A stretch of 57,697 nucleotides of DNA, the filler included, from Jimgerdemannia flammicorona (Eukaryota): assembly GCA_003990765.1 (NCBI GenBank). It is 3 parts of 3 records of this genome, joined end to end, with 100 filler letters (N's around TTAATTAATTAA, not from the genome) between each part and the next. Parts side by side here need not be neighbours in the genome. Positions count along the whole stretch, not along the records: positions 38,534 to 57,697 come from RBNJ01002010.1; 2 more parts are not named here. One strand, written 5' to 3'. This document shows, in pieces, positions 7,014 to 56,100 of this stretch; positions within the stretch are counted from its first letter, which is position 1, and every line of letters begins with the position of its first letter. The position numbers and the translations under genes are program-made. The notes beneath the pieces are model-generated. The model saw only the letters and a list, made by a program, of their open reading frames with translations, was not told where the DNA came from and ran no database searches.

Positions 7014-7069
7014 TTTTTAGCTTAAAAGTGAGGGATTCATCTTAAATCACCAGTCAATAGGTACTAAGT

Positions 7070-8593
7070 TGTTATGTAGTGGGTGTTGAGTTCTTCAAAT
7101 ATATCAGATTCTCTTCAAGGTATATCTCTTAGACTAACTATAAGTTTGTTATAAGTAAGTTCTTATTGGAGTGTCTTCTCAAGATCTTATAGTCCTCAAA
7201 CTTCTTATCTTTAAACTATCTTGTTATCTCTTAGATTGCTTATATAGAATTGAGTATAAGTAAACTGAGAGAACTAACTTTATTTCAAAGAAAATGAGAG
7301 GGATATTTATATAAAATATAATTCAATGATTGCTAAGATATAAAGCTAAATATTAATTCCAATAACTAAATAAAATACTAGAATACAGAAAACTTTAGTT
7401 GTAAGTACAAATTTGAGTATTTGTATAAATGGTTATATAAGTTCAGAATGTTGATAGATTTCAGTGATATAAGAAAAGGATGCCAGAAGATTCAGATATT
7501 ATAAAGAACTTAGAGCAGAATATTCAGAACTCTGAGTACTTCATCTTCATCACTATTATCAAGATTAGAGATCAGGAACAGGATGTTGTCAAAAGAGATG
7601 AGGTTGGTGAATATTTTGTCTATTTTGCATATGTTGCATATTAGCAGGATGACATTATTACTAATGATGTCATCATGGGTGATATCATCATGTTTAGCAG
7701 CAAGAGTAAGAAGATCTGAGGCTCTCCAATATATGAGGTTCTCTTCAACAAAATAAGGGACAAATGTGGGGTCTTGGGAAGGTCAACCCTAGATACTGGG
7801 GCTTTGAAATACTGAGATCAATCTCTGTAGGATAGAATTTCAGAACTCTTCTACCTCATCACTATTGAGAGTGATAATAGATTGGACTTCTATAGTGACT
7901 ATGGCTTCCAGTACATTGATATAGCAGGCTGACAATTCCTTGAAGTCTGAGACTCTAGTATACTCCAAGTTAGATATGGACTATAGTATATGTCTAAAGA
8001 TCTGATAAATCTTCTTAGTTGTTCTTATTTTATATGCATCTATGGAGGTGGCCTCTTGTATCTCTTGGGAACTGATCTGAGGGAATTTCCAGCAAAGGAG
8101 GTTTTCTATTTCATACTCTTGCTATATTCAGAGATATTTAGTAGTGATAGTGATCCTTGTTTCCATTTCACAGTAATAGAGAATAAAGTGATAAGGGTCA
8201 CCAGTATCCAGGTTGAGGCTAGGAGTCCTTCTTGTATAAGTCCTCATAGCTCTTCTGATATCTTGGAATATTCTTTCTTAGACTTAGAATCCTTGGTGAT
8301 TCCTAGACCTTGAGGTTTGGCAGGCAGCAGACATTTTGTTTATAGTGAGTCTTTGAGCTATTTTGGAGTTTTGTGAGTCTTGTTTGAGTTGCTACTACTG
8401 TAGTTCCTTAGTCCTTCTTTTATATTCCTTGATATGTCTATCTTATGATTATAATGACTTATGGTTAATCATCATTGCTCATCTTGTAGCCTGGGTGAGT
8501 TATGCTGTATGATCTTCTTGTGCTCTAATCTGGTGACTTGTAAGGAAAGACTGTCTCCTGTAATGATGTCACCATTCTGAGGTCATCATTATA
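7070..8593 (-). repeat. 5' LTR of family A copy 1 (about 1.52 kb)
   Basis: Colinear with 39146-40684 and 53119-54693. TG...TA (CA mutated). PBS-like sequence just inside at about 7050-7067. Confidence 0.9.
7510..8334 (-). pseudogene. LTR-encoded accessory ORF, family A copy 1 (disrupted)
   Basis: Aligns by eye codon-for-codon with 39607-40443 (ATG at 8334, stop at 7510), with extra stops and a deletion. Confidence 0.75.

Positions 8594-24888: not shown

Positions 24889-24920
<32 letters not shown>
20233..24920 (+). mobile_element. Degenerate non-LTR retrotransposon, L1/Tx1-like (partial ORF1; ORF2 APE-RT; poly-A tail)
   Basis: APE motifs SLNMNGLR, GGDFN, RIDWI, SDHW. RT motifs APGEDG, DQEKAYD, RGVSQGDPLSPILY, AFADNM. 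AATAAA at about 24864 and poly-A at 24892-24920. Confidence 0.92.
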
Positions 24921-24922
<2 letters not shown>

Positions 24923-25233
24923 TACACCTATGATATAATTGATACTTTGTTTGATATATACATGATACTGTTTCATCTACCCCCATAAACTATATAGCCA
25001 GAAATTCAAAATGCTTAATAGTTTAACTTTGAACATGTATTAATATAAAAGACAAGTACTCTGATAAAATCAAAAAGAACACAGAGATAAATAAATCAAT
25101 ATCTAAGCTGTAGTGGGTATATTTATCTAATTGCCTAACTATTTCTATACTAACAACCCTGTTTAATTAAAAATATTTAGTCATACTCTTTGATAGAATT
25201 TTGAAATCAGCTTATTCATTAGATTGTGTGCAC

Positions 25234-30600: not shown

Positions 30601-32035
30601 GAGGATTGGGAGGCAGCCAATTGGTGAATTCTGTAGATACAAAAGGAAGTTGAGTTAAATAAAGTGCTACAAATGAAGAAAGAGGTTCAGTTGAAGGGGA
30701 TGGTGGTGAGGTTGTGGTAGCAGGAGTTGGAGGAGGGAGAGAGGCCCACTAGATTTCTTTCATAATTGCTTCAGACTTGGAGGACTAGACAGCAGTGGGA
30801 GGGGATTTTAGATGAGGATGGGGAGATGATAGTAGGAACTCCTAAGATTATGAGATTGCTGAGAACTTGCTGGGGGAAATTATGGAGTAAGAAAGAAGAG
30901 AGTGAGGATGCCCTGAACATTGAACAGCAGTTGGAGGATTGGCATCTGGACTCAGCTCTGAGCCTGGGGATACTGGGAGATCCAGTACAGGGAGAGGAAG
31001 TATGTAAGGTCTTGGCTTCAATGAGCAAGGGGATAGCTCCAGGAGAGGATGGACTTCTCTGAGATTTTTGGAAGATAGTGGGGGTGGAGGTGGTATTGGA
31101 GGAAATGATGGCAATGAGTGATGAGGTTCTTCAATCTAGATCTTAGATTGGGGGCCAGCACCTAGGGCTGGTCTCTTTGCTCTATAAAGATAAGGAGAGA
31201 AGAGAAGATTGGAAGAACTGGTGACTGATCATGCTACTTGACATGGACTGCAAGTTAGTGATAAAGATCTTAGTGACTAGACTGCAGGGGATTACTCAGG
31301 TACTAGAAGTGGAGCAGAGGGGATTTGTTGATGGTCAGTTGATCTGAGATGGAACTGCCTTGGTCTATGGGGTGATTGAAGGAGCTTGGGCAGCTGGGGT
31401 GAATGGCTGGTTAGTGTTTCTGGATCAGGAGAAGGCTTATAACAGGGTGAGGAGGGTCTGGCTGGAGGAAGTGCTGAAATGGGTTGAAGTCCCCCCAGGA
31501 TTCAGGAGGGCATTAATCAGTCTATTAGAAAACAGTCAAGCAGCATTGGTAGTAAATGGGTACTGGGGTATAACTTTCCCACTTGGTCATAGGGTGCCAC
31601 AAGGAGATCCTTTGTCATCCATCTTATATGCCCTTTCCTTGGAGCCCCTAGTGGATAGAATCAGGCATTAAATTGGGGGTTTGGATATTTTGGGAATTAA
31701 TTGAAAAGTGGGGGCTTTTGTGGATAATATAGTAGTTGGACTGAGTTCATTGGAGGATGTGGAGGAATTAAGGAGGTCTGTAGAATGGTATGAGAGAGGC
31801 TCAGGTACTAAACTCAACTGATACAAATGTGAGACTCTGGTGCTAGATGGTAGAATAGTTAGCAGCAACATGATTGGAATGGTGATATCAGCAGAAGAAC
31901 CAGTCTATTACTTAGAGATCTACTTTTTAGTATATAGGTCTCTCCTATCCTATATATAGTGGGAACAGCAGCTCTTAGTATGGGGAAATATGCTCCTGAG
32001 ATAGGGTGGTCAGTATATATCCTTGGCAGGAAGGG
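27690..32035 (+). mobile_element. Second L1/Tx1-like LINE (ORF1 and ORF2 up to post-RT), interrupted by LTR B
   Basis: SLNINGLR, GGDFN, SDHWG, WWLNSSLL, IAPGEDG, DQEKAYN, VPQGDPLS. Paralogous to 20233-24920. 5' boundary approximate. Confidence 0.9.
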
Positions 32036-33850
32036 TGTAATAACTCTCACTTCTACACCTCTCTTATCCTTTGAATAATTAGGGAAGTAAGACTATTACT
32101 TAGAGACTTAGTATATAATATGTACCAAGAAGCCTTCAGTTTGAGGAAGCACTTGCTTATAAGTAATTGTAGTGGCAGTATCTTCTATTTCAAAGATCTT
32201 TCTCTGGTTTGCCCTATCTTTCAAGGGTCTTGTTCTTTGCTGTGCACAGACTGAATTCACCTTAGAATTCAGGTTCAATGGATTTACTTAAGTCTTTGGA
32301 GATTTATATACTAGTCTCAGTTCTGGCAGAAGTTAGCTAGGCTTCTGGAGTTTAGTTAGAAACACTAGAGTCACTTAGGTGTCATTACTAAGACTCAGGG
32401 GAATGTGTGTGTAAAGGAGAACTTGATTTCTTGTATCAAGGACTAAACTAAAACTGCTTTATTTCAGATGGAAACTGGGGGGTATTTATACAAGTTGGTC
32501 TGCAATTTCTGACTAAGTATGAGTGACTAATTTGGTAACTATAATGAGGTTTGTGATCATGACCTTTATCAGGTGGTTTTTGGCAAAAACAACTTTGTGA
32601 TCAGGACCTCAATTACTAGACAATAATCAGCTGTTGTGGTAACAGTTACTGTGACACCGATTGTTGGAGATAAGCTGGATATCATTTTTTTACATTGTTC
32701 ACATCATTTGTCATTTATAATATCATATGTCATACTTTATTTATATGATGACGTCATTGCTCACTGAGTCATGTGATCACTTGTTGCACCTCATTCTATT
32801 ATATCCTTCTCTCCTTAGAAATCAACATCCTCATTAATTTGGAAATTGAGAACTAGGGGAGAGAAAGGTAGAGAATCTTCCTCAGGGTTGTTGCCATCTT
32901 CTTCAGTAGCAGGGGGGGTGGTTGCTGATGGCTCACTGTCCAGGATAGAGAAGTCAATAAGGTCTGCAAATAGTTCTTGTATTGGGATAGGCACTGGTGT
33001 AGGGGTTCTCCATCTGATATAGTTGAGACCATCCAAGTAGGGTTCTTGATCCTTATGCCTGGGAATATCCATTCAGATAGGTGGTCCTTCAAAGAGGTCA
33101 GAGAGGCCTTGGAGCCATTGGTCTGGGTTGTCATTCAGGAGGGAGCTCCAGTAGGGTTCACAGTCAGTAGACTTGAGAGTGATCTAGAAGTTGGCTTCTT
33201 GGATTACTGTGATCTCTAGCTCGTCAACCTCAGGAAAAGAGAGATTCTGGAAATCCTTCAGTTGGACATAGTTGAGATTGGGGATTGCAAAGGATGTATG
33301 GTATATGATTTGATGAACCTTCTTGGTAAGTCTTTGCTCATATCTGTCCAGGCGGGTCCAGTCTGAGACTTGATCAGTGGGTAGGTCCTTTGCTCATTGG
33401 AGGAGTTGGTGGCCAATTTCATATTCATACTAGATCTTTAGGTAGCTGGTAGCAAGGTAGGCCCTTTCAATAACTTCATAGTAGTTGAGGACATAATGTC
33501 CTAGATCCTGGCTGGAGAGATTAAGGGCCTCATAGCAGCAGTTTCTTCCTTAGATAGCAACCTAGATGTGTCCAAAAAGATGGTCAACCTGACTTGGGAG
33601 GGGCTGGCTATGGCGGGCAGTTTGGCAGTGGGTAGCAGGTATTCTTGTCTTGTCTTTTTCTTTGTAAAGAGAGGGGAATAGAAGTTGTAGGGTATTTTTG
33701 TCTTGGGTATTTATTCTTATTCATCTATCTGGTGTGACCTTCCTTTGGTCACACTTTCCAGCAAAATATGTGACCTATTGCTGTAAGTGGGGCATGTGCT
33801 GGTCACATGAGAAAAATCCTGATTTTGAAGATATTATCACTTGTAGTCAT
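32036..33850 (-). repeat. Long LTR, family B (about 1.8 kb)
   Basis: Starts TGTAAT exactly where LINE ORF2 breaks. TATAAATACCCC on the minus strand at about 32478-32490. Right boundary approximate because it overlaps the short dispersed repeat. Confidence 0.7.
32815..33642 (-). pseudogene. LTR-encoded accessory ORF, family B (276 codons, start ATG mutated to ATA, several internal stops)
   Basis: Single frame: ...LNLSSQDLGHYVLNYYE...KI*YEYEIGHQLL...KKVHQIIYHTSFAIPNLNYVQLKDFQNLS...NYIRWRTP...ELFADLIDFS...PLVLNFQI. Confidence 0.8.
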
Positions 33851-33851
33851 A

Positions 33852-33973
33852 GTTATACAGGGTTAACAGGTCTTGGTTCTCTTTTTTTTTTATCTGGTTA
33901 GTACATTTGTGAGGACTGGCCATCCTTGTCTAGGGTGAGGGCTCTCATTATCACAGCTGGGGGTTCAAACCTC
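33852..33973 (-). repeat. Short B-box-like dispersed repeat, copy 2
   Basis: Reverse complement aligns to 19275-19395 over its whole length, including the post-A-tract GAGAACCAAGACCTGTTAACCCTG. Confidence 0.65.
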
Positions 33974-34350: not shown

Positions 34351-36738
34351 TGTAATGGTTCTAGTTTCTAAATGAGGAAGTGACTAATTCAGATAGTTCT
34401 AAGTAGCTTGAAGAGATACTTAAGAACTCAAGTGTTCTTGAAGAATTTCTGAGAGAAAATATTCTGAGACTTTATTCATGAGAACAAAGGGGATATTTAT
34501 ACAAGATCTGAAAGAAGGATCTGGAAGGATCTGAGAAATCAAAGGAAAATGCCAAGAGGAAAGTTCTTGGCAAAGAAGACAAATGATGACAAATAAAGTT
34601 CTACAAGTTTCCAGGACATTCAGTGACTAGCTAAATAAGTACTAGAGGATATTCAGCACCAAGAAAGGATTTTTAAGCATTCAGAAAGTACCAGAAGGTT
34701 GTAGAATATTGAAGAAAGACAAAGAAAAGAAATAAACTATACTAAAATGTTACATCTCCCCCTCCTTAAGAATCAATATCCTTGTTGAATTCTCAAAGTT
34801 ACACATAATAAACAATAAGACTAAAAGAAACTTCAAATTAAATATATTGACTCATTGGCAAGGATTGGCCATTCTTATATAAGGTAAGGGCCAAAGTATC
34901 ATCTTGATCGGATGAGAACTGGTTCGAACCTCATTGGTTGCAGGATTTATAGAGTTCTCCTGTATTTCTTATTTCTGATACTGTATCCCTTAGAGAGCTC
35001 TGATGCATAATGTGCCTAATCAGTACAGTAGGACATCTACTATCCAAAGAGAGAACCTCATAGGCAGTCAATGAGTTCCTTTTTGCTTGAACTCTTGGAT
35101 GAGATCTTGGGAGTTCTTGAGATTAGCGGCAGGTTCCCAGGTGGCATCATATTCAGGGTAACCCATCCACTTGACTAGGTATTCTGTGCAATGGTATTGG
35201 ACTCACTTGTCTAAGATTTTCTCAACTTCATACTCGATGTGGTCTTCAACTATGACTGGTGCTGATGGTGTCAGAATTCGGCCAGGGTATGGGGGTGACT
35301 GGTTCTAGGCCTTGAGTTGTGACACATAGAATACTGAGTATATACACATGGTTGTTGGTAAGTTGAGATGGTAAGACTAGGTAGAGACTTGCTCAGTGAT
35401 CTTGAAGGGTTCAAGGTACTTGGGCTGGAATTTGGCTGACTGGTGGTTGACTTGAGATTGAGCCTTAATGTTGTCGGCTTTGAGTAGAACCATATTACCA
35501 ATATTATATATGACATCTTGCCACTTCTTATCTGCATACTTAGCTTGATGTTGCTGAGCCTTTTGCAGGTTTGTAGTGGCAATCTTGAGAAGGGAATCCA
35601 TTTTGTCAATAAGGTTCTGGGCTGTGGGGACTTGTGTGTGACTGGATTGCTGGAATGAGACTAAGCTTGCAGAGGTCTCAGGGTTTTGACTATGAAGTAG
35701 CTGAAATGGGGAAAGACCAGTTGATGATTGATTGGCATTGTTGTAGGCGAACTCAGTGTAGGTCAGATAGTGGTCCCAATCATCTTGCTCATAAGACACA
35801 TAGTTCCTGAGCATTTGTTCAAGTGTTCTATTCATTTGCTCTGTCTGTCCATCAGTTTGAGGGTGGAAGGCAGTGGATATTGCGATTTGGGTTCCAAGGG
35901 TCTTGAAGAGTGCTTGCCAGAAGTGACTTGTGAACTTGGGGTCATGGTCGCTGATAATTACTCAGGGAAGTCCATAATGGCAGAAGACAGTCTTGAAGAA
36001 GATTCTTACAATTTCTGGGTCAGTAGCATTGGTTGTGGTTGGCTTGGCAATTGTAATCTTGGTGAGATGGTCCACAAATACAACAATAGCATCATAGCCT
36101 ATTTTGGTTTGTGGGAGTTGCACAATGAAGTCCATTGTGACTTGTTCAAACTTCTTGGTCAGAATTGACAAGGGTTGTAGAAGACTGGCAGATGCTTGAT
36201 TGCTTGACTTGTTTTTTTGGTAAAGATTGCAGCTTTGGATATACTCCTTGATTTTCTTGAGCATGTTTGGCCAGTAGTAGTCTCGTTGGATATTCTTGAT
36301 GGTCTTCTCAGTTCCAAGGTGACCAGCTAGTGGGGAGTTATGGTGTTTATGAAGAATCTTATACCGTAGTTCAGAATTGGTAGGAATATATACTTTGTCT
36401 TAATAGTACATAAGATTGTCCTTGATGGTGTACTTTTCCTTGAATTCCTTGGTATTCCTTTGTAGAACCAGAGGGTCTTGTTCATATGCCTTCTTGATTT
36501 GATTGAGGAATTCAGGTACCACGGTGACTTGTAAAATTGTGGCAAGGTCAGGTCTTCTTGAAAGTGCATCTGGTATAACTAGAGTTTTGCCAGGCTTGTA
36601 GATGATGTTTGGGGTAAAGGTCTGAAGTAATTGACTCTACTTGGCTTGTTGGCGAGAAAGGGTTGGTTGAGTGTTGATATACTAAAGGGATCTGTGATTG
36701 GTGATCACATCAAACTCAACTCCTTCTAGATAGTATCA
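34351..36738 (-). mobile_element. Chromovirus (Ty3/Gypsy) 3' half: RNase H end, integrase, chromodomain, PPT, 404-bp 3' LTR (34351-34754)
   Basis: DALSRRPD, GHLGTEKT, VTMDFIVQLP, FHPQTDGQTE, GPF-like EPFKI. Chromodomain EYEVEKILD..EYLVKWMGYPEYDATWEP at about 35090-35240. PPT AGGAGGGGGAGA next to TGTAAC. Confidence 0.92.
34840..34932 (-). repeat. Short B-box-like dispersed repeat, diverged copy 3
   Basis: GAGGTTCGAACC...GGCCCTTACCTTATATAAGAATGGCCAATCCTTGCCAATGAGTC, located in the chromovirus 3' UTR. Confidence 0.5.
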
Positions 36739-36802: not shown

Positions 36803-37056
36803 GGATAGCAATGCTGAAAATGGGTGTGACAATTGTTTGCACCGAATAGGGATAAGATGAGTGCTAGTGCTGGATATGGATGTTGTGGGTGGTAACGCTG
36901 GATTCGGACTTGCTGACAAAATGCTGAAAATGGTGGCACTGGATAGCAACGCTGGAAACAGGTGTGACAATTGTTTGCGCCGAATAGGGATAAGATGAGT
37001 GCTAGTGCTGGATATGGATGTTGTGGGTAGTAATGCTGGATTCGGACTTGTTGACA
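36803..37056. repeat. 138-bp tandem duplication
   Basis: ggatagcaa...ggattcggacttg(c/t)tgaca occurs at 36803 and again at 36941. Confidence 0.9.
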
Positions 37057-37169: not shown

Positions 37170-38080
37170 CCTCAAAAGGGGGAAGTGCTGGCCAAGAAGT
37201 GAGGGTAGAAAAGTGGCCAGTCATCTTCAACAACATTCTCCAACCCTTGAACAGCTTGAATGAGGACAGAGGACTGGTAGACTCTCTGTTGCTCCTCTTC
37301 TTCTTCTGAAGGCTTGTCAGTTTCAGTGTCAGAGGGGGTTTCTTCAGGGGCAGGGTCTTGGAGTTCTTGGGCTTCCTCCTTAAAGACAGGGACCTCTTGG
37401 GCTTCTTCTTGATTCGGTTCTCAAATGATGAGATGTGAATTGTGGCTGACAGGGTGGTGGGTGGTAGGGGTAGCTCCAACGGGTGCTTCTATAGTAATGG
37501 GTGGTCCTTCAAACATCTCCATAAGGCTCATTAGGTGACCTTGATGGTTGTCTCGGAGTGGGGTGGTGTGGAAACCTGGTTGAGTAGGTTCAGTTTGTTG
37601 ACTTCCTACAGTAACGCGGTTGCTGCCAATAGAGTTGGCTACTTCAGATTCTATCCAGTCAGTATCTTCAGTTGAAAGGCGGGAAAGACTGCCAGTCATT
37701 ACTCCTTGTAAGTGTGCTATGGCCCAGGGAATATGGTAGAAGATTTGGTGGACATGGAGGGCTCTCTTGATTAGCTGGCTAGTGGTTATCAATTCGGTAG
37801 TGAGGCCTTCTCAGTCATCTTCTTGAGTCTCATTGCGAAGGTGGTGTCCGATTTCATAGTCATGCCAGAGGGTCATTCGTTCGGTAGTGTCTTTGAGCTG
37901 TTGGGTCATTATATACTGGTAGTTGATGAAGTGTCCAAGGTCCTTGGTGTAGAAGTTCAAATGTTCGGAAGTATCTGGGTGCCAAATGGCCTTCTTGATA
38001 GCTTCAAAGATCAGGGTCTTTGGGCCAGGCAGAGGGATAGAGCGGCAGGAGGTCTGGTTGGTTCGGCGAGTGGGAGGCAT
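37170..38080 (-). pseudogene. Accessory ORF, family E (homolog of the LTR ORFs), two internal TGA stops
   Basis: MPPTRRT...LIFEAIKKAI...LNFYTKDLGHFINY...LWHDYEIGHHL...KRALHVHQIFYHIPWAIAHLQGV...LSRLS, then an E-rich tail. ORFs 37811..38170 and 37421..37792 are in the same frame. Confidence 0.8.
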
Positions 38081-38433: not shown

Positions 38434-38533
38434 NNNNNNNNNNNNNNNNNNNNNNNNNNNNNNNNNNNNNNNNNNNNTTAATTAATTAANNNNNNNNNNN
38501 NNNNNNNNNNNNNNNNNNNNNNNNNNNNNNNNN
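38434..38533. other. Assembly gap with TTAATTAATTAA linker
   Basis: N-run flanking a six-frame-stop spacer. Confidence 0.97.
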
Positions 38534-39089
38534 AGTCCAATATCTCTGTGCAAAGACCACTTTCTGATCAAGGGTCAGTGCAGCTGGGGTAGACCGGATT
38601 GCTAGGGCAATTTCAGGGTAAACTCCTTTGAGGAAGGTTGAATCTGCTATTTGTTCCTTGAGGCGGTCATTATAGCCAGCCAAGACAATCTGGTGGTAAA
38701 TTCGGGTATAGAATGAGTTGGGATCTTCACTAAGTCCCTGGCAGATAGTATTGAGTTGATCCTTGAGAGCTTGCTTGATCTCTTCGGTATAATATGTTGT
38801 TCTGAGAAAGGCCTTCATGTTGGCAAGTTTGGCTGCACCAGCATCAGCAATGGTGGCTGCATTGAACTTGTCTCTGGCAGGTCCTCTGAGGCTGACTGGT
38901 AGAAGGGCCAATTGGGCATCCACACCAAGGGCTCGTACGGCGGCAAATTGTTCAAAGTCTTCAATGAAGGTCAGGATTGACTCTTCAGTAGTATATCCAT
39001 AGAATGTGGGGGGGCGCATTTCCATCTTGTCTTGAATTCTTGCAGGGGTGACTCTTGTAGTCAGGGTAGTTGTTGTGGGGGTTGTTCAT
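38534..39089 (-). pseudogene. gag: Gypsy gag N-terminus, family A copy 2 (cut by the gap)
   Basis: PPTFYG...FIEDFE...LRGPAR...ICQGLSEDPNSFYTRI...FLKG retrotransposon gag motifs, directly downstream of LTR and PBS. Confidence 0.85.
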
Positions 39090-39145
39090 TTTTCAGCTTA
39101 AAAGTGAGGGATTTGTCTTGAATCACCAGCCAATGGGCATCAAGT

Positions 39146-40684
39146 TGTCACATAGTGGTCACTGAGTCCTTCAAATATGCCAGATTCTCTTCAAGGTGTA
39201 TCTCTTAGACTAACTTAAGTTATTATAAGCAAGTTCTTATTGGAGTGCCTTCCCAAGGTCTTATAGTCCTCAAACTTCTTATCTTTAACTGTCTTGTTAT
39301 CTCTTAGATTGCCTGCAAGGAAGTGTGTGTATTGTACTTGACTGAATGCACTGAATTGACTGACTTTATTTCAGAGGAAATAAGAGAGGTATTTATACAA
39401 AATATGATTCAATGATTGCTAAGATATAAAGCTAAATATAAATTCCAATAACTAAAACTACTGAGTTCCAGAGCTGGCATTATTTAGTACTACATCAAAA
39501 TACCAGTGCTGGAACAATTTCGCGTCACCTCAGAATACCGGTGCTGGCATTATCCAGTGTTACATGAGAATACCAGTGCTGACATTATCCAGTGTTACAA
39601 AGAACTTTAGAGCAGAAAGTTCAGGATCATGGGAGCTTCATCATCATCATCATCACTGAAGGAGATGAGGTCCACAAATTCGTCATGTAGGTCGCGCGTC
39701 TCACGTACTTCGTCATTTTCATGTGCCTCGATGTTGCGCGGGATGACGTCATCGATAACATCATCATGTTTGGGTGTGGCGGGAAAATCGGGAACAAGGT
39801 CTGGAGCTCTCCAATCTATGAGGTTCTCTTCCACAAAATAGGGGACAAATGTGGGGTCTTGGGGAGATCTAACTCGGATGCTTGGGCCTTAGAATACTGA
39901 GATCAATCCTTGCAAGAATTGGTCTGGGTTGTCCTGAAGGATGGGGTGCCAGAAGTCTTCTACTTCTTTACTGTTGAGGGTGATAGTGGACTGGGCTTCT
40001 GTAGCCACCCTGGCTTCTAGTGCATTGATGCAGCGAGATGACAGGTCTCTGAAATCTGAGACTCTCACATACTCCAAGTTGGGAATCGACCATGGTGCAT
40101 GCCTGAAGATCTGATGGATCTTCTTAGCTGTCCTCATTTCACGTATATCCATGGGAGTGGCATCTTGTAGCTCTTGGGTGCTGGCCTGTGGGAACTCCTG
40201 GCAGAGGAGGTTTCCTATTTCGTACTCCTGCCACATTTGGAGGCATTTGGTGGCGATGGTGATCCTTGTTTCCATTTCACAGTGGTAGAGGATGAAGTGA
40301 TAGGGGTCTGCAGTACCCAGGTGGATACTAGGAGTCCTTCTTGAGCAGGTCTCCATGGCTCTTCTGATGTCTTGAAACATCCTTTCCTTGACCGAGATAC
40401 CTTGATGATTCCTTGACCTTGAGGTTTGGCGGGCAGCAGGCATTTTGTTTGTGGTAAGTCTTTGAGCTATTTTGGGATTGGGGTTCTTATTGGTTGCTGC
40501 TACTGCAGTTCCTTGATCCTTCTTTTATATTCTTCAGAATGCTTGTGCTGTGGTCACAATGACTCACAGTTGGTCATTGTTGCTTATCTCGCATGCCATA
40601 TGATCTTCTTGTACTCTGATCTGGTGGCTTATAAAGAAAGGCTGTCTCCTATGCTGATGTCATCATTCTGGGGTCACTATTACA
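39146..40684 (-). repeat. 5' LTR of family A copy 2 (1539 bp)
   Basis: Element sense TGTAATAGTGACC...CACTATGTGACA, then ACT-TGATGCCCATTGGCTGG (decayed PBS). TATAAATACC at about 39388-39397. Confidence 0.92.
39607..40443 (-). CDS. LTR-encoded accessory protein, family A (184-aa ORF plus in-frame acidic tail; 278 aa if the single TAA at 39889 is read as CAA)
   Basis: ORFs 39889..40443 and 39607..39834 share a frame with one intervening stop. Homologs in five other LTR-type segments and two env-position sites in this window. Confidence 0.75.
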
Positions 40685-41536
40685 ATATAAAGATCACTAT
40701 AAGAAAGAGAAAATTATAGATAAGTATAGCTATATTATTAAAAAAGAATTCTCACTTAAAGAAGAACTCAAGAAGCTATTATATATATATAAATTTGAAA
40801 ATATATTTATTACTAATTTTAAAGATATTAAGAAAAATATACTATAATATTATTATAATATTAATATAAAAGACACTAAGCTAATATATTAGAAAATAAG
40901 ACTAATTTTACCAGTATAATATATATATAAATAACTTAGATAAGAGATTAAGTAAATAAAAAAAAACTAGTATTATTAAGAAGTTATTAGTTCTTTATTC
41001 TTACTAATTATACTAGTCTCAAAAAAAGAAAATAAATCAAGAGAATTTACTTTAAAACTTTGTACTAACTATAAAAGACTTAACAAAGTTATTAAGAAAA
41101 ACTATACTCTATATAAAATATTGACTATTTTGTCTCTCATCATTAGTGAGAATAATATATTATTAAAGTCAACTACTATACATATACTTCTATTTCATAT
41201 AGACTAGAAATAATTATTTTAAGGATATTTGATTTAATTTCTTATTATATTTCCTACTCTCTATTTTGAACTATTAGTATAGCTTACTGAATATCTTCCA
41301 TCATCTCTAATAGTATCAAAACAGCAGTCTCTACTATTTTTTATTAAAGAACTATAATTGTCTTAAGTTCAAGAGAATATATATAATAAATTGGTTAAAT
41401 ATAGTAGTACTCATAATCTTAAGTAATAGTATAAGTCAAGTATAGCTTATATCTATAGGTTCTTAGCTATTTATATTTTCTATAGACACTATATATAATT
41501 TTACCCTACTATATAGTAGAATTTCTATATTGATAT
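40685..41536. mobile_element. AT-rich, heavily mutated TE relic (includes a plus-strand Gypsy RT fragment); the target continues at 51755-53118
   Basis: LVLKKENKSREFTLKLCTNYKRLN-like at about 41010-41100, i.e. decayed KKxxxSGxFxPRLCIDYRKLN. The rest is not identifiable. Confidence 0.5.
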
Positions 41537-42870
41537 TGTGACAAACCAAGACATATCCAAATTATATCTTAGCCAGATAATATGAATACACAGTATAGTA
41601 ACCAGCAACCATTACTATGGAAACTATATAAATAGCCAAACTATCAGATAAGATATATCTATATAGGACCTGTATACCTGTATCAGATCTACACACTTGT
41701 ACTGGACCTGCATAACTTACCATAAGTAGCAAATCTATAGTTAGCCACATAGCAACCAGATAGCAACCAACTTGTATAAATTACCCCAGAGACAAGAGTG
41801 AATAAACCTCAGTCTGAAATTGAAGCAAAAGACAAGTCTGCCTACTATACTTCAAGAGGAACTCTATAGCTACTGCTAAGAGATTGTGAGCTTATTTCCC
41901 TACTCCAGTCTACTTTCTAATACAAAGTTTGAAGATTTTGCTGCTAAGTTCGAGTGAAGAGCTTTGCTGTCTTTGGAATTATTGATACACTTATCAGACT
42001 AAGCCTGAAGAACCTGCCACTTAAGGAATAAGCCACACTATTGGTATACTTGCCAGACTAAGCCTGAAGAATCTGAGTTTGCTACCAAGTTCAAGGAGAA
42101 CTTCACTGCCATTTCTAAGATATTTGTTGCATTTCCAGAGAGCCTGTCTTTTTTGCCACAAGCCAGTCTCTTGATATAACTTTGTAGTAATCTGTTCATA
42201 TAAATGAAGCTAGTCTAGATATAACTTGCTAAGAATCCAAGTTAATTCCCAGTTGAAGCTGCTGATTCAGGAAGAATCTATACCATCATATTTCCAGAAG
42301 AGCTCAATTTAGAAAGAGTCCATGCCATCTGAGTAGTATTCCTAGTTGAAGCCACCATTTACAAGAAGTCTACCAATTCAGGAAGAATCTACAATATCTG
42401 AGTTATTCATTGTTCTCAGTGAGCCTGATTTGGAGAATCTGCTGCCAGTACAATTCTCAGTAAGAAGATCATTGCACTATATAAAGATTGATATACTAAG
42501 ACTATTACTCAGAAATTGCATACTTTTAGAGATCGCTATCACCTAAGAAGAAAAACTACTAAATTGTCAGACTATCATATATAAGAAAGATCATTGTACT
42601 ATATATGAAATTCTACCAATTCCCAGATTGACCCAAGAAGGAAACCCATTCACACAAATCATCACTATACCCAGAGAACCATTCTAATTAGGAAATTGAT
42701 ATATAAATTGCTTACAGATATCAAGCTTTAACTATTATACTACTAAATACCAAGGACCTCAGGAATCTTAGAACATTTTGTTACTTTTTGACAAAGTAAC
42801 TGGGAGCTCAAGTCAAACTACATCAACCTCCAACCTTGTAATTTGCCTCTATTGAGCTGGACATATTACA
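41537..42870 (+). repeat. 5' LTR, family D (1334 bp)
   Basis: TG...CA; direct repeat of 50437-51750. Confidence 0.95.
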
Positions 42871-42872
42871 TT

Positions 42873-42889
42873 TGGGGGCTCAACTGAGA
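42873..42889 (+). promoter_or_regulatory. Primer-binding site, probably tRNA-Pro
   Basis: TGGGGGCTCAACTGAGA resembles the tRNA-Pro PBS TGGGGGCTCGTCCGGGA after CpG-type decay. Confidence 0.7.
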
Positions 42890-43428
42890 AGATTTTAAAA
42901 TTGATATGACTTTTCAGCTCATAAGAACTCATAGTCAAACTAGATATATTTGATATAACACCAATCTCTGCCACTATAGGAGAACCAGTTATTACTAGTA
43001 TCTGGACAGAAAGAGAAGTAATCACCTCAAGACTTGCCAATTATCCAGCATCAGAAGGATCCCAACCAGAACTAGAAGGCAGCACAGCCCAAAATCCCCA
43101 ATCAGATCAACTAGACAATATAGGTGGCTCTGTTGGAGATTTTGAAGAACTTGCACAAGAACTAGAAGATCTTATTATACAAGCCTAAAATCTTACAGTC
43201 AGACACTCCATACTAGTCCCATCAATCTCACCAATAGAACCTTTATCACAACTTCTTGTAGAGTTAGAAGTAGCTCCTATAAGAATACCTAAGCTTATTC
43301 CACTTTGTCCAAGATCCAGAACACCATCCTCAAGATACCCAAGCACCCCCATTTCTAGTAATAGTTCAGAAAGTGAATCAGAATCAGAATCTGGACCAGA
43401 ACCAGAATCAAAAGAAAGTGATGACAAA

Positions 43429-44700
43429 ATGGCCACCTCATTGCCAATATTTGCAAGATATCCAGAGGAAGACCCCAGAGAATTCCTTGATGGAATCAAA
43501 GGAATTGCAGCCCTGAAAAATCTCCCAGATAAAAGAAAAATTGCTATCTATAAGGCCCAGCTCAGAGAACCAGCCAGAGGAATTTTCCACTAGACAGCAG
43601 ATAACCCAGATTCAGAACTGGCAAGACAGATACAAGCAGTAATGTCTTATAAGCTAGAATACATGGCCATGGTCTACTGGCTCATTGAAAAGTATGCAGG
43701 AAATGAAACCCACCATAAGGCTCAAGAATCTATTGTAGAGATGAAGATGAATCTTAGAGAATCACCCAGAGCCTTTTTTACAAGAATCTAGAAGAGAATA
43801 CATACTGCCGGATTCAATGCCACCAACTAGGACATCATAGGTCCAATGACCTTCATGAATGAAATTCCCCTGAACATTGCTCAGTATGTTCGCACTCTAG
43901 ATATCAGAAGGTCTGAAGAGCAAGTAGATGTAGCCCAAGAATTCTTTGATATTAGACAAGAAACTACCTGGAGTGATCATAATAAGAAAGAAGATAAAGA
44001 AGACATCCTGGTCAAAGCCCTATAAGGACTCCTTCAAGGATAAGAAAGATCTAAAGAAAGAAGGCCAGCAAAAGAAGGAAAGAAGAACAGAAGTAAAATC
44101 TAAGACCTCAGCTCCAAGTTGGACCAATTGGTTGGATAGATTGAAAAACTCACCATATGTAAAAATCAGAGCTACCAAGACAACAGAGGATACCCACCAT
44201 AGAGGAGCCAAGGTTATCCACCAAGAGATAACAGGAACTACCAGTAAGAAGAAAGAAGATACCCTGTCCAAGACAGAGCCCAAGTCCAATGCTTTTACTG
44301 TGGATAATTCAGATACTATGCCACTGAATGTGACAACAAAAGAAGTGACCAAAGGGACCCAGAACCATCAAACCAAAGAAGTGACACTCAGTATAAGAAG
44401 ACAGAAGCCCACCCTATTGAAGACTTTGAGGAGACAAGTAATAGTGAAGACTATAGTAATCTAAACTTGTACCCTACCAAGGTCACCAGCCAGAAAACAG
44501 TCTACCCAGCAGAGAAAAGGAAGAGATCTGTAGAAAGACCATCCAGGAACATCAGCAGAAGAATCATCCAAGAAGAAGACAAAGAACATGAGAAGGAACA
44601 AGTAGAAACACCTCCTCGGACTCCTTCACCTTTTGTCCCTAAGACAAATGAGCTGCTATCAGAAGATGAAGAAATGGAATAAGAAGAACAGGAATCTGCC
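43429..44700 (+). pseudogene. gag: gag, family D
   Basis: MATSLPIFARYPEEDPREFL...QLREPAR; CCHC knuckle relic QCFYCG*FRYYATEC at about 44287-44331. Confidence 0.8.
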
Positions 44701-44929
44701 ACTCCAAAGCCCAAGAAGAAGTATACCCTAAAGACCATGCCCAGAGACATCTACAATAAAGCCTGGCAGAAGATTCAGGAAGTAAAAATAGAGATTCCCC
44801 TTCTGCAGTTCCTGCAACTGACACCCAGAGTCTGAAACAAATTGCTGAGAACCACCAGGTCTAGCACTGGCCAAGTTCTAATCCCACAGCAAGAACCAGT
44901 TTCCATCTCTGTCCAAGCAGCTGAGAAAT

Positions 44930-45300
44930 ATGTCAGTACTTACCTATATAGAGATATTAGAGGACAAAAGGCAAAGATCCTCATAGATACAGGAGCAGCT
45001 GTCTGTGTCATTGCTAAATGGTTTCTGGATACTCTCCAATGGCCTGTTGATGGACCATCCAACCTTAGCATCATAGTAGCAGATGGAGCCCAAACCCAAC
45101 CCCTTGGAGAAGTATGAAATATCACCATCTCTCTTGGATACATTTAGTTCTCTATTTTGAAAGCTATTGTCACCAAAGCTGTCACCTATAACATGATTCT
45201 TGGCACCAACTGGATGAAAGAAATGAATGCAGTTATTGATATTAGTCAACAAGTACTCAAGTTTGACTACTGAGACAAGAAGTACAGAGTTAAGGTAACC
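44930..45300 (+). pseudogene. Aspartic protease, family D
   Basis: KILIDTGAAVCVI...VADG...PLGEV...YNMILGTNWM. Confidence 0.9.
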
Positions 45301-46599
45301 AGCTATGAGCAATCAAAGAAAAAGAAGAAGATCACTATTCAAGAAGAATATGTCAGTAGTGAAGAGTTTACCACTAAGGAGAAAGAAGAATCTGAAGATG
45401 AAAATGATTGCAGACTCAATCCCCAAATTAATCTGATAAATGATAGACCAGAAGACAATGTGTGGGCCAAGAACACTATCTCTATCACTATTGGAACTAT
45501 TGCAAGAGAAATCAAAGAATGCTCTATCTGTCTCAAGAGATACAAGTGTCCTAAGCATTCCTCCAAGATCATGGAAACAAGGAAATCATCTGGTACAGCC
45601 TGTCCAGAGTGCAGAAGGAAGAAGAAGAAATGCAGATATGTTTCAGAAATACCTGCAACTGAAGCTGCAGAAGTATAAGCAATTTGGAGTCAAGAATCAT
45701 CCAAGGAAGAAAAAACTTCTGACCAAGAAGTTCCTGAACAAGAGGTACCTGAAGAAGAAGAGGTCCCTGAACTCATTCTCTGAGATAACTCTTGCTGGAC
45801 ACCACCTAAAGACAATGACCCTTGGAATACAGAAGAAAGATCTAGTATAATCACCATTATCCCTAAGAAAGAAACTCACTAAGAAAAGGCTTTTTGGCTA
45901 GGAAGATATCTACACCAAATGGTCTTCTACTCTCCCTGAGACTACTGCTACCAGTGCCATTTACTAGACCAACAGGAGAGATAGAGACCCCAGAGACCAG
46001 AACTCCCAAATACAATTGCACAATCAACTATCTTCCAAGAAATTACCACCAAGTTACAAAGCTGATTTAGGGGACAAGACCTCTTCACCTGGACAGAAGT
46101 ATATCCCTTGTCTACTCTTCCACCCACTTATGACCAAGATGGATACTGATTCCCAAAACAACAAGAGATCAACAACTGAGAATATCATTTTTGAGCAATG
46201 GGATATTGTAATCATAGAAGATACTCTGACTGCCAAGACTGTAGACATCAGAAGATTCACCTCAGTCATGATGTTGTAATCCATACTTTGAAGAGAGGAG
46301 ACAACAGAGGCCAGATCCAAAAGAGCTGAGCCAAGAAGCCAGGAAGGAGAATTCTCAAGATCTATGATTTGGGAGAAGATATCCTAGCTCTCATCAGACA
46401 TGCAACCTGCCAAGAATGGGCAGAAGATGCCACAAACTTCATAGAAGCCCTAGACCCTATAGGAAGAAGAGGAATCAACTATTTCTGAGACCCCTCCACT
46501 GGAGCCAGATGGCCACACCTCAACCTCAGAGCTTAGAGACTCTCTGCTAGTGGGGCTTCAGTCTTAGGAAAGCCTGAACTTAGTAAGAATATTGCCCAG

Positions 46600-47000
46600 T
46601 ACATCCTACTGCATCCCAAGGCCAAACCTCTGACCAAAGCCCACTCAGAAGATATAGGGTATGATCTTCACAGTCTGGAGGATGAATCTATCAAATCTGG
46701 AAAAATCTTCATAATCAGAACTGGATTAGCCATGCAGCCACCTCAAGGAGCTTACATCCAACTAACCTCAAGATCTGGACTTGCCAGACAAGGAATAACT
46801 ATAGAAGGTGGAACCATTGACCCAGAATATACAGGCAAAATCAAGGTTATCCTACACAACAGCAGTGCAGAATAGCACTGAATCATTAGAGGACAGAAGA
46901 TTGCCCAAGTAGTCTTCATGAAGGTCAGGACCCTGTAATTACAGAAAGTATCTGAACTGACTAAAGGAATAAGACAAGTCAAAGAATTTGAAAGTTCAGA
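46600..47000 (+). pseudogene. dut: dUTPase domain, family D
   Basis: EDIGYDL (motif 1), SRSGLA (2), GGTIDPEYTGKI (3), GQKIAQ (4), RQVKEFESS as decayed RGxxGFGSS (5). Confidence 0.9.
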
Positions 47001-47539
47001 TAAGAAGGAAGTATATCTTCTTCAAGTTAATTACCTCAAAAGGAATATTCCCCAGCAAGCATATTAGCAACCAGTCAGACTATATAAGAATCTTATCCTG
47101 GAGCCTGGAGAACAAACTACTTTCGAAATCTTTGTACCACCTGACCTCAGAAATCTTTTCTTTGAACCCAAGGAAGATATCCCACACCTGGATATAGAAG
47201 GACACACTTTTCCTGACAAGATGAACCCAGTATACTTCTGAGCAACCAACCAAAGTTGGGAGACTATCATCTTGTCAAAAGGAACTATCATAGGACATCT
47301 GGTGCCTTTTCTCAACTGAACTCATAGGGAAGTTTATGAACTAAACCTATTGGGAAATGGCCAAAGATCTCAGAAGAAAGGAAAGACCCCTCTGCAACCC
47401 AGGAGACAGTAAAGCCTTCCACTAACATTGGAGAAGAATTGATACCCCAACAATAGCAACAACTAGTAGAACTTCTCAACAAATATCAAGATATCTTTAC
47501 TACCAATTATGGCAACCTGCTATACAATCCATCATATCA

Positions 47540-49880: not shown

Positions 49881-49881
49881 C

Positions 49882-50397
49882 ATGAACCAGAGAATTGACA
49901 ACTGCCTTCAAACTCTTATCCTCAGCTCATTTCAATCACTGCCAGTTCCCCTATCCCAATTTCGAGAAGTTAATGGAAACACTTTCCAGAAGATCCAGAT
50001 TCATCAAGAGAATCTTGTACTGACCAGATGATTGCTACAGATCCACCAACTCTAGACCCATTATGCAATCAGAGAACAATTGCAGAACCTCTCAGTCCCA
50101 GAATAAATATATATCAGAAATACCACAGAACTATTAAGGAGAGATACTACTGCTGCAGACAGGTTGTACATCCTTTATAAGCAAAACCCTACAGCACTGA
50201 TACAAGTACAATTCTCCTGATATAATACACAAGGAATGAACTTAGCCATCTACCTGAGCATCATCAATGCTGTTGAAGTTCTATTTCCAGAAGAAGAAGA
50301 AGAACCCTTGGAATGGAGCAACCATAGTACAGATGATGAAGATGATGGAATAAGTATTGATGCAGAAGATGCTTACCCACATTGAGATGATGACTAA
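49882..50397 (+). pseudogene. Accessory ORF at the env position, family D (homolog of the LTR ORFs)
   Basis: MNQRIDNCLQTLI...QL*THYAIREQL...TAADRLYILL*AKPY...NELSHL, then an acidic tail EEEEEPLEW...DDEDDG ending about 40 bp before the 3' LTR. Confidence 0.6.
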
Positions 50398-50436
50398 AGA
50401 ACAGTCTGAGGACATATCATCTTTAGTAAGGGCTGA

Positions 50437-53118: not shown

Positions 53119-56100
53119 TGTCATATAGTGGTCACTGAGTTCTTTAAATATATCAGATTCTCTTCAAGATGTATCTCTTAGACTAACTTAAGTTTGTTAT
53201 AAGTAAGTTCTTATTGGAGTATCTTTCTAAGATCTTATAGTCCTCAAACTTCTTATCTTTAAACTATCTTGTTATCTCTTTAGATTGCTTGCAAGGAAGT
53301 ATGTGTAAGTGAACTTGACTGACTTTATTTCAGAAGAAATAAGAAGGGTATTTATATAAAATATAATTCAATGATTGCTAAGATATAAAGCTTAATATAT
53401 ATAAATTCCAATAACTAATAAAATGCTAGAACACAGAAAACTATCAAGTTTCAGGGTTAGTACAGATGGTTGCACAGGTTCAGGATACTGGTATAATTTT
53501 AGTGATATAGGAAAATGGTACTGGAATAATTCTGAGTCACAAGGTCAGAATACTGGTAGAGGAACAGCTATTATATAGGAAAAAAATATTAATATAATTC
53601 AGTATAACTAAGGAACTTAGAGCAGAATGTTCAGGACCATGGGGGCTTCATTCTTATCATCACTATCCTCAAAAGAGATGAGGTCTATGAACATTTTGGT
53701 CTCATTGCATAGGTCACATATTTTGCATGCTTCACACATATTGTGTGGGATGACATCATCACTGATGATGTCATCATGTTCAGCAGTAGCAGGAATAAGA
53801 AGGTCTGGGGCTCTCCAGTTTATGAGGTTCTCTTCTGCAAAATAAGAAACAAATGTGAGGTCTTGGGGAGATCTAACCTGGATGCTTGGACCTTAGAATA
53901 CTGAGATCAATCCTTATAGGAATTGATCTAAGTTGTCCTGGAGGATGGGATGTTAGAAGTCTTCTACTTCATCACTATTGAAGATGATGGTGGACTGGAC
54001 TTCTGCAGTCACTCTGGCTTCTAGTATATTGATATGGTGGACTAACAGATCTCTGAAATCTGAGACTCTAACATACTCCAAGTTGGGGATTGACCATGAT
54101 ATATGTCTGAAGATCTGATGAATCTTCTTAGTTGTCCTTACTTCTTATATATCTATGAGAGTAGTATCTTATAACTCTTGGAGGCTGGCCTGTGGGAACT
54201 CCTGGCAGAGAAGGTTTTCTATTTCATACTCCTATCACATTTGGAGGCATTCAGTAGCAATGGTGATCCTTGTTTCCATTTCATAACAGTAGAGGATAAA
54301 GTGATAAGGATCTGCAGTATCCAGGTTGAGGCTAGGAGTCCTTCTTGTATGGGTCCTTATAGCTCTTCTGATGTCTTAGAATATCCTTTCTTCAACTGAG
54401 GTACCTTGGTGATTCCTTAATCTTGAGGTTTGGTGAGCAGCAGGCATTTCATTTGTAGTAAGTCTTTGAGCTATTTTTGGATTGGTGGGTCTTGTTGAGT
54501 TTCTGTTACTGCAGTTCCTTAATTCTTCTTTTATATTTCTCAAGATGCCTAAACTGTAGTTATAATAACTCATAGTTAGTTATCATTAGTCTGGGTGAGT
54601 TAAGCTATATAATCTTCTTGTGCTCCAAACTGGTGACTTACAAGAAAAGGCTGTCTCCTGTGCTGATGTCATCATTCTGAGATTACTGTTACATCTCTTC
54701 CTGAATAAGGATCTTCTTGAACATCCTTATTCATTAGTCTAGTTCTGAAAAATTTGCTAATCCTATAACCTCTGGCAAGAGGTTGAAAAGTGGTATTTAT
54801 GGGCTGATATCTTTCTTATATATTTTGGTATAATGGTGAAGGGTTACTCCCTTCATATAGAGCAAGGACCTGATTCTGATCTTGATCAATCAGTTGATAT
54901 TTCAAACTTCTCTGGCTTTGAAAGTCTCATAGATAAGTAGTTACTAGTACTGTATCTCTTAGAAAATGGTCCAGACAGATAGTCTACTAGTCATAGGATA
55001 TGCTGTTACAATTCATAGAATAGAACCTTGTGGGTGGTCATCACATTTTGCTTTTCTTGTATAGGTTCATGGTACTTCTTGAGTCTGTTCTTATGTACTA
55101 TAGTAGACAGTATGGTCTCTGAGATTTTTTTAAGCCAGAAGGTAGTTTCCTTGATATCTTACATATAGAAGAGTCCTTCCCATTTGGGCTCCAGTTTTCA
55201 TGACCATGAGGCTTCTACTATATTTTGATACAGTAGGACCTTTTTTCTGATTTGGATGGATTCTAGGGTCTTGTGATTCTTTTCTACATTCTTTCTCATC
55301 AGTGCTTGTGACTTGATGATATAATCTTCAGCCTTCTTCCTGATTTGGTGTAGTCTCTGGATTTCTGAGTCAATCCATCTCCAAGTTAGGTCTAGATTTG
55401 TGGCTGAGGTTCCATTAGAATATTCTTCTCTGAAGAGTAGTTCTCTTGGAGTAAAGTATATACTCTGTGACTGTATATCTTATAGGATAGAGAGAGCAGT
55501 TGAGAGATAATTATCCCAATTCTCATATGTGTCTGAGATCTTTGCCAGGATGTTTTTGAGGGTCTTGTTGGTTTTCTCTATCTGTCTATTTTCTTGAGAG
55601 TGGTATGTAGTAGTCTTGATGTGCTGAATCTTATATTTCTGATATATTATCTTGTGGAATCCATTGACAAATTCTGTGCCACAGTCTGTTGTGATTTGCT
55701 TTGATGTCTTATAGCAGTAGATGATTTCTTAGTGCAGGAAATCAGCTATAGAGAGGGCATTGGCTTCTTATAATGCTCCTGCTTCTATCTATTTGATAAA
55801 GAGGTCTACAATAACTATAATATAGTGGTTTTCTGATAGTGTTACTGGTAGTAGTCCAATGATATCTATTGTGATGTAATGGAAGGGGATAGGCTCAATT
55901 CTTGATGACCCAGATACCTGGTCTTGCTGATCTTATTTCTGTTTTTGATACTTGTCACACTCTTTGACAAATTTGCACAGGTCTTCTTCCATCTTGGGCC
56001 ACTATATAGTTCTTTTTGTCTTATCATATATATTGGTTCTTCCTAGGTATCCTTGTTCAAGTACTTCCTTCATTACTTGATACTTCTTATGTTTGAGTAT

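Follow-up and report, generated by a model that had tools for sequence, protein, structure and literature searches.

Can the long terminal repeat (LTR) of a retrotransposon hold a gene of its own? LTRs are regarded as non-coding, and gene calling is preceded by masking them out, and the genes borne in the U3 region of an LTR include sag of mouse mammary tumour virus (MMTV), a whole open-reading frame (ORF) in U3, and the lentiviral nef and foamy-virus bel/bet genes, which overlap U3. The question is raised here by a 57.7 kb stretch of Jimgerdemannia flammicorona DNA (57,697 nucleotides of assembly GCA_003990765.1, filler included, which we refer to as the window), a nest of decayed retroelements lying on the minus strand for the most part. 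In one Ty3/Gypsy family of this nest, which we call A, a preliminary description had placed a frame of 278 codons inside the LTR, in element sense and in three copies. We analysed the window together with one metagenome locus (L001) and public protein collections. The window contains joins (N...TTAATTAATTAA...N) at 19168-19267 and 38434-38533, the second of which interrupts the element of the first copy, A1, within gag; as this join separates A1 from a further segment, E, the two are not known as genomic neighbours.

Homologous reading frames in the window

Copy A1 of the frame lies on the minus strand at 39607..40443, runs from the ATG at 40443 (start context CAAA-ATG-CCT) to the TAA at 39607-39609, spans 278 codons and scores 453 bits against the family profile. 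Its position was correctly given before; a TAA at codon 185 (39889-39891, minus strand), its only in-frame stop, had gone unmentioned and stands where intact relatives have Gln. Four further copies were found on the same strand, namely A2 (53620..54447, 276 codons, eight stops), A3 (7513..8334, 274 codons, eight stops and one 8-codon deletion), B (32818..33642, 275 codons, six stops, the start codon now ATA) and E (37175..38080, 302 codons, two stops). When the A translation was searched against the window with tblastn, it matched A2 at 72% identity (E 3e-127), A3 at 59% (E 5e-98), B (33675-32953) at 35% over 242 aa (E 1e-36) and E (38092-37469) at 28% over 209 aa (E 2e-17), each match being confined to a single frame without a frameshift. 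A blastn comparison of the window with itself returned no A-B or A-E match at E ≤ 1e-10, so the earlier remark that the proteins of these families align and their DNA does not was borne out. The family profile, run against the six-frame translation, recovered exactly these five copies (327-453 bits) and nothing else of note. At least two, and probably three, strongly diverged Ty3/Gypsy families carry this homologous sense gene of ~270-340 codons.

A further family, C (3374-5424), had been named as a carrier along with B and E; B and E hold homologous frames, and C was not confirmed, with no tblastn match at E ≤ 10, a family-profile hit of independent E-value 2.8 at 5109-4750, and only a loose colinear resemblance to the family. 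This segment, described as a solo LTR, lies on the minus strand as a nested insertion between the gag and protease of the A3 element, looks like a related LTR and has AGTATAAATACC at 3830-3841; a partial inverted copy with 81% identity occurs on the plus strand at 19485-20230, beside the join at 19168-19267.

The frame lies within the LTR of family A

The self-comparison by blastn defined three minus-strand copies of LTR A, ~1.54 kb long and 74-81% identical pairwise, and in all three the homology begins TGTAA(T/C)AGT and ends ...GTGACAA. LTR A1 (39145-40684, starting TGTAAT... and ending ...GTGACAA) and LTR A3 (7069-8598) are 5' LTRs, both followed in element sense by a common leader and then gag: 6477-7069 beside A3 matches 38534-39145 beside A1, with 81-86% DNA identity to the A1 gag (38534..39085, minus strand), which is cut by the join at 38434-38533. 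LTR A2 (53118-54693) is a 3' LTR, with reverse transcriptase (RT, 56927-57385), RNase H, integrase (55600-56088) and a polypurine tract, the purine run AGGAAGAGA, upstream of it and unrelated AT-rich DNA downstream. In three public runs the contigs are interrupted at 39145 and 40684, and in two of these runs (X1 and X3) the flank past 40684 is the pol-end/polypurine sequence found at A2; LTR A fragments are also contained in soil metagenome runs. Because homology borders, flanks and contig breaks agree, A is a true LTR, and the borders and flanks confirm that the frame sits inside it, in element sense, in each of the three copies. The A1 frame starts 241 nt inside the LTR start and is wholly within the LTR; in family A generally it starts ~240 nt after the LTR start and ends ~210 nt before the LTR TATA box.

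Three minus-strand features succeed the A1 frame in order: a 35-nt tandem unit in 3.8 copies between the ORF stop and the TATA box (39468..39599, candidate enhancer repeats, with copy-number variants in run X3 that skip 35 nt), the TATA box TGTATAAATACC of the LTR promoter (39388-39399) and, ~20 nt past it, an AATAAA that is a candidate poly(A) signal (39365-39370). Since they follow in this order, the frame would belong to U3, an assignment drawn from the TATA box and AATAAA motifs, not from a mapped start site. The box is exact in A1 and in B (32481-32492) and lies downstream of the frame in both, as the preliminary description had it, and TGTATAAATACC matches with at most two mismatches number 18 in place of the 7.2 expected. 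The TATA/AATAAA arrangement GAAATAAAG is common to A1 and B, and L001 has GAATAAAC ~24 nt after its TATA box. A frame sitting in U3 would be copied by reverse transcription into both LTRs and would persist in a solo LTR.

The putative LTR B (32000..33865, minus strand, ends approximate) begins ~1.2 kb downstream of an integrase/SH3/chromodomain region (35080-36378), carries the same module as A (TGTATAAATACC...GAAATAAAG, TATA box at 32481-32492) and has a purine-rich run and a TGT... start ~215-226 nt upstream of the start codon. On these features B is very probably a 3' LTR, of which the window holds one copy. Upstream of the E frame, AT-rich non-element DNA sets in at ~225 nt; downstream, E is cut at ~36730 after a 138-nt tandem repeat, abuts a pol fragment and ends before any TATA box, R or U5. 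The earlier statement that the gene is present in both LTRs of its elements holds for A, found in 5' and 3' LTRs, and extends neither to the truncated E nor to the single-copy B. The 138-nt repeat (36803-37056, minus strand, 1.8 copies, 93% match) of E corresponds in position to the 35-nt repeats of LTR A.

The carriers encode recognisable pol domains: RVP_2, dUTPase, RVT_1 and RT_RNaseH_2 in the A3 element, RVT_1, RNase H, Integrase_H2C2 and rve in the A2 element, and H2C2, rve, SH3_Tf2-1 and Chromo in the B element. Their domains follow the Ty3/Gypsy (Metaviridae) layout, in which gag comes first and is succeeded by protease, RT, RNase H and integrase. In family A the same repeat precedes leader and gag at the 5' end and succeeds pol and the polypurine tract at the 3' end, an arrangement pieced together from three different elements, none of which shows both ends in the window. 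The mark of the chromovirus branch of Ty3/Gypsy is a chromodomain at the integrase C-terminus; a chromodomain was detected in the B element (Chromo, PF00385, E 1.9e-15) and none in the A2 element, which is decayed. The integrases of A (55600-56088) and B (35080-36378 region) share 25% identity (E 4e-11), a figure lowered by the decay of A2. The B integrase finds its best named relatives in Paraglomus occultum and Calcarisporiella thermophila (48% identity); a green alga reaches 46%.

Two observations touch on these carriers. The LTR proteins of A and B are 35% identical and the integrases 25%, so that the LTR gene may be the more tightly constrained, or may have moved between families. The A3 element also encodes a dUTPase domain (PF00692, E 4e-10; 2562-2789, minus strand) between its protease (3204-3359) and RT (1676-2164), which gives the pol of this LTR-gene carrier an accessory enzyme domain.

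Coding capacity and purifying selection

Purifying selection on the frame had been proposed beforehand, and the substitution pattern supports it. The ratio of non-synonymous to synonymous substitution rates (dN/dS, Nei-Gojobori) in frame was 0.24, 0.27 and 0.36 among the A copies, 0.17 between L001 and A1 and 0.19 between A1 and B, whilst shifting these nucleotide alignments into the other two reading frames gave 0.64-1.56. Differences by codon position followed the order 3 > 1 > 2 in 10/10 pairs (chi-square p 6e-3 to 7e-7). The A-B and A-E codon alignments were guided by protein, a procedure that favours codon positions 1 and 2, and their dS is saturated; the within-A pairs are free of the alignment objection. 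GC content at the three codon positions (GC1/GC2/GC3) was 0.55/0.38/0.55 in the LTR frame, with C preferred at third positions, matching gag (0.56/0.41/0.45) and integrase (0.51/0.33/0.49); neither the codon periodicity nor the third-position C preference was present in the LTR flanks. All five copies keep a single frame from the conserved MP start to the ...LN(F/I)LL end, despite several indels in the tail.

The copies carry 25 stops in total (A1, A2, A3, B and E with 1, 8, 8, 6 and 2), nearly all of them formed by C>T or G>A transitions, and 20 of the 25 coincide with a Q, W or R of the intact relatives, from which a single transition leads to the stop. It follows that the copies were open at insertion and decayed later. 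Present activity of the gene is not supported, as all five window copies contain stops. The comparisons show that purifying selection has acted on the gene in the frame described and that its copies in the window are now dead, and we regard it as highly probable that a real, selected gene is borne in the LTR.

As to the decay itself, 135 of the 158 differences between A1 and A2 are transitions. Classical repeat-induced point mutation (RIP) was considered as the cause and rejected, the C>T changes having no CpA preference and the ratio of observed to expected CpG (CpG o/e) being 0.0-0.3 window-wide. As CpA is not preferred, we speak of transition-dominated decay and not of RIP; deamination of methylated CpG fits the decay of the LTR copies better than classical RIP does.

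The product is a new protein family

Neither the A protein nor any of the 26 aligned members matched a Pfam family (best E 0.024, which is noise), and a sequence profile search of the PDB gave no match at E ≤ 10. The element's own Gag is no relative: aligned by hhalign to the A1 gag, the family alignment reached a probability of 0.09% over 15 columns, and there was no Retrotrans_gag match. A match to a known pol or env domain or to a described LTR-encoded one had been named beforehand as a refutation; these Pfam, PDB and hhalign searches gave no such match, and none to gag. We also found no homology to Sag, Nef or Bel (no Pfam match below E 0.02, no PDB sequence, no fold match). The product therefore belongs to no known family, and we assign it to a new one.

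In the predicted layout, ~170 residues make up a helical core; a short linker rich in Pro leads from it to a tail that is disordered and strongly acidic and contains conserved short hydrophobic motifs. A full-length model of the metagenomic relative P0004 was unusable (predicted local distance difference test, pLDDT, 47.4). A model of the core alone (AlphaFold2, relative P0009, 26-row alignment) reached a pLDDT of 77.3, with ~90 over residues 70-160, and a predicted TM-score (pTM) of 0.70, and was all-helical. With the tail charge of -16 to -29 (18-26% Asp+Glu, 8-14% Pro), this agrees with the helical core and acidic tail foreseen in the preliminary description; the core too has a net negative charge, of -6 to -12. 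Foldseek with the core model found no match in PDB or BFVD at E ≤ 0.001, and the ESM Atlas gave leads only (best feature score 0.83, TM ≤ 0.33). With VIA-align, which works without Foldseek, the best match had Z 4.1 (root-mean-square deviation 7.2, 87 residues aligned) and none of 48,161 chains reached Z ≥ 5; eight of the 50 matches listed are ParB, SopB, VirB, KorB or Spo0J DNA-binding domains, all weak at Z ≤ 4.1. The family profile, the dN/dS estimates and the structure searches that had been suggested as checks thus bore out selection and homology, and returned no Pfam or fold match.

The conserved motifs are EYEIG, HQIFRH-P-W-IPNL-YV, DNPDQ(F/W)LQGL...F(Q/E)GP, YF-EEN-I-WR-P, F-x-DLI-x-F and P-x-x-LNF, and the tail motifs reported before (WRxP, F-x-DLI-x-F and P-x-x-LNF) are indeed present in the family alignment. 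The F-x-D-L-I-x-F motif, which acidic residues follow, may resemble SUMO-interaction or Atg8-interaction motifs.

Relatives outside the window

A word-indexed protein search yielded six relatives among 355 candidates, and an exhaustive profile search of 1,835,955,588 representatives yielded ten at E ≤ 1e-3, five of them at E ≤ 1e-30. Each subfamily is represented by proteins of 200-342 aa that are intact or limited by their contigs: A-type (P0004, 271 aa; P0003, 247 aa; P0019, 323 aa), B-type (P0010, 342 aa on a 4848-nt contig; P0027, 259 aa; P0009, 214 aa) and E-type (P0012, 200 aa), with P0014 to P0017 more distant. JGI/IMG or ENA assemblies are the source of all 22 cluster members listed, whose contigs measure 540-4848 nt and whose sole name is "hypothetical protein", and none of the 22 originates from NCBI or UniRef. 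Masking of LTRs would explain why no relative comes from an annotated genome.

L001, a metagenome contig of 1345 nt, is the sole relative locus with DNA context from the metagenome scan, and its architecture is that of A1: GAATATAAAAG, 57 nt, an intact 323-codon ORF, ~180 nt, CTGTATAAATACC and AATAAA. A scan of viral contigs for the family gave no loci. No longer or fused form of the protein was found, which is weak evidence.

A possible transcription unit and its product

How might such a gene be expressed? A TATA-like box, TATAAAAG (40522..40529, minus strand), lies 86 nt upstream of the A1 ATG and is a candidate promoter of the ORF. It occurs at -86 to -90 in A1, A2 and A3 and at -65 in L001, with the core GAATATAAAAG in common, and TATA-like boxes also stand upstream of the start in B (AATAAATACC) and in E (TATTTAAGG). 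No ATG intervenes between the box and the CAAA-ATG-CCT start, and the AATAAA of the LTR follows the stop of the frame by ~240 nt. Each LTR would then be a self-contained transcription unit with a message of ~1.1 kb, ended by the AATAAA of that LTR. As box, start and AATAAA sit within one LTR, splicing would not be needed; fungal introns are short, and a host that was a fungus would not usually splice over such a range (6 kb in this element). On the strength of these motifs, we give a promoter of its own inside the LTR roughly an even chance.

As to function, the protein would most likely act in the nucleus as an adaptor, through protein-protein contacts, and may promote expression of the LTR or counter its silencing in the manner of VP16, with a structured core and an acidic tail. 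The herpesvirus VP16-type activators offer an analogy in that they too have a structured core that need not bind DNA and an acidic tail with bulky hydrophobic residues; there is no homology or fold match between them and the LTR protein. An activator or anti-silencing role is possible but less likely than not, and we put it forward tentatively. Taken as a whole, the explanation that serves best, and that we think fairly likely, is one of divergent Ty3/Gypsy families with a selected gene borne in the LTR, forming a self-contained unit and encoding a nuclear adaptor. The fullest form of this idea, in which the LTR is a compact cassette of promoter, a 270-340-codon gene of new fold, enhancer repeats, element promoter and poly(A) signal, so that every LTR, solo ones included, would be an expressible copy of a trans-acting factor that raises LTR transcription or dampens silencing by the host, is something we hold as possible and would not call likely.

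Several observations weigh against this explanation. All five copies in the window are broken, with 1-8 stops each, and the cross-family codon pattern is biased by protein-guided A-B and A-E alignments and by saturated dS. The LTR status of A depends on comparing three elements, none of which has both LTRs in the window; B is present in a single copy and E is truncated. The TATA-like boxes upstream of the frame are short, AT-rich and family-specific, and may be due to chance. The one structural lead, to ParB-type DNA-binding domains, comes from weak matches of a model, and the negative charge of the core argues against direct DNA binding. Ten relatives among 1.84 billion proteins make for a narrow, possibly short-lived family, and the metagenome relatives other than L001 come without DNA context. 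Finally, a small run guessed to be RNA (X9) looks like DNA and is neutral on expression: LTR A was covered at depths of hundreds to 15,000 and gag at 0 (38534-40745), the contigs cross both LTR ends into unrelated flanks, and the run probably represents DNA sequenced at low coverage, from which nothing but the high-copy LTR could be assembled.

Of the other explanations, the one that survives best is that the LTR-borne gene is a replication cofactor for the element's own particles or cDNA (an assembly chaperone, a nuclear import factor or an integration-site adaptor), made from a subgenomic RNA of the 3' LTR region in the way of retroviral accessory genes. The coding and LTR evidence serves it equally well, an acidic disordered tail with short hydrophobic motifs would suit any adaptor, and the 35% identity of the A and B proteins, set against 25% for the integrases, is what a needed part would be expected to show. 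It is weakened by the lack of similarity to Gag (hhalign 0.1%) and of any pol or env domain, by the absence of a physical link to particles, and by the solo LTRs, which would retain a gene useless without its element; we consider it unlikely, if still worth a place. A much less probable account makes the gene passive cargo, a captured fragment of a host gene (transduction) or a foreign element nested in the ancestral LTR. The protein has no known domain, the distant relatives P0014-P0017 could be host genes, and LTR elements are known to pick up host sequence, according to the accessible text of PMC7264820; the same text has captured ORFs occurring in one or few copies. Here the gene occupies the same place, beginning ~215-240 nt into the LTR, even though the integrases of the families share 25% identity, has dN/dS of 0.17-0.36 and the codon usage of gag and pol, and has neither a longer or fused form (weak evidence) nor an NCBI or UniRef relative among 1.84 billion representatives, all of which makes cargo very improbable. 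That the frame is no gene at all, being conserved regulatory DNA of U3 or a set of chance open frames in a repeat, would suit the usual non-coding nature of LTRs and the stops in every window copy, yet we see next to no prospect for it given protein matches of E 1e-36 and 2e-17 between families with no DNA match, dN/dS of 0.64-1.56 in shifted frames vs. 0.17-0.36 in frame, intact ORFs of 200-342 aa elsewhere, and neighbouring plus-strand Gypsy LTRs with 22-36 stops in all frames. Between the roles that the gene could play we rank activation or anti-silencing of the LTR in the nucleus first, itself a tentative choice, the replication cofactor second, and passive cargo a distant third.

Comparison with known accessory genes

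Known U3-borne genes provide the closest models. As in MMTV sag, a complete sense ORF (40443-39607) would lie in U3, bounded by the start of the LTR (40684) and its TATA box (39388-39399). It would occur twice in the DNA form, once per LTR, as well as 3'-terminally in the genomic RNA, and would require a message other than that RNA. The carrier of sag is however an infectious retrovirus and its product a membrane glycoprotein, whereas here a Ty3/Gypsy element encodes an acidic, soluble-looking helical protein with no Pfam match for 26 members and no fold match. Lentiviral nef and foamy-virus bel/bet are likewise accessory genes at the 3' end that include U3 sequence, and the internal promoter of foamy viruses parallels the promoter suggested above; they differ in starting in the internal region and only overlapping the LTR, whilst the gene described here is wholly within the LTR with 240 nt to spare, and has no likeness to them in sequence or fold.

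Extra genes are also found in LTR retrotransposons themselves. The accessible text of PMC7264820 describes additional ORFs (aORFs) of plant elements, among them env-like genes, ORF1 of Ogre and the antisense ORFs of Grande, RIRE2 and Retand, which like the present gene are conserved in whole LTR-retrotransposon families and have no assigned function. All of them are placed in the internal region, either ahead of gag or after pol and before the 3' LTR (accessible text of PMC7264820), and the present ORF, inside the LTR, is not of this type. In that text the phrases "within", "in" or "inside the LTR" occur nowhere. Boty/BcGypsy1 of Botrytis cinerea carries an extra gene, brtn, which is antisense (PMC8365987, accessible part); compared by description, it is likewise an extra gene with no assigned function in a fungal Ty3/Gypsy family, unlike the present one, which is sense and inside the LTR. 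The crapaud element of Podospora has variable 5' halves of its LTRs, and gag and pol ORFs only, in the accessible part of PMC10787394. In the full-text library searched, no LTR-internal gene of an LTR retrotransposon was found.

We conclude that divergent Ty3/Gypsy elements house in their LTR a real gene, once under selection, whose product forms a new protein family, and that this gene is a variant of the U3 accessory-gene theme. If the gene is one under selection, a solo LTR is a possible gene and not a relic, an accessory layer of the nef/sag kind extends beyond retroviruses, and there is a candidate for how elements affect their own transcription or host silencing. If the LTR is in addition the compact cassette set out above, no earlier accessory gene would be wholly contained in an LTR outside the retroviruses; the more copies of the element there were, the higher the gene dosage would be, and recombination between LTRs would leave the gene in place.

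Other features of the window

A Gypsy element on the plus strand (41537-51748) has LTRs of 1.33 kb (41537-42868 and 50437-51748), 86% identical and with a CpG o/e of 0.03. No ORF was found in these LTRs, each of which has 22-36 stops in each frame. An older inverted copy of its interior, with ~70% identity, lies at 14814-18872. The regions 20000-25000 and 28000-32000 have a sustained and very strong GC skew (0.3-0.5) at a GC content of ~50%, and consist of another retroelement family (RT at 22852-23268, plus strand) and a second, diverged copy of it with 66% identity. CpG o/e stays at 0.0-0.3 throughout the window, where the GC content switches between 21-30% and 45-50% in blocks the size of an element.

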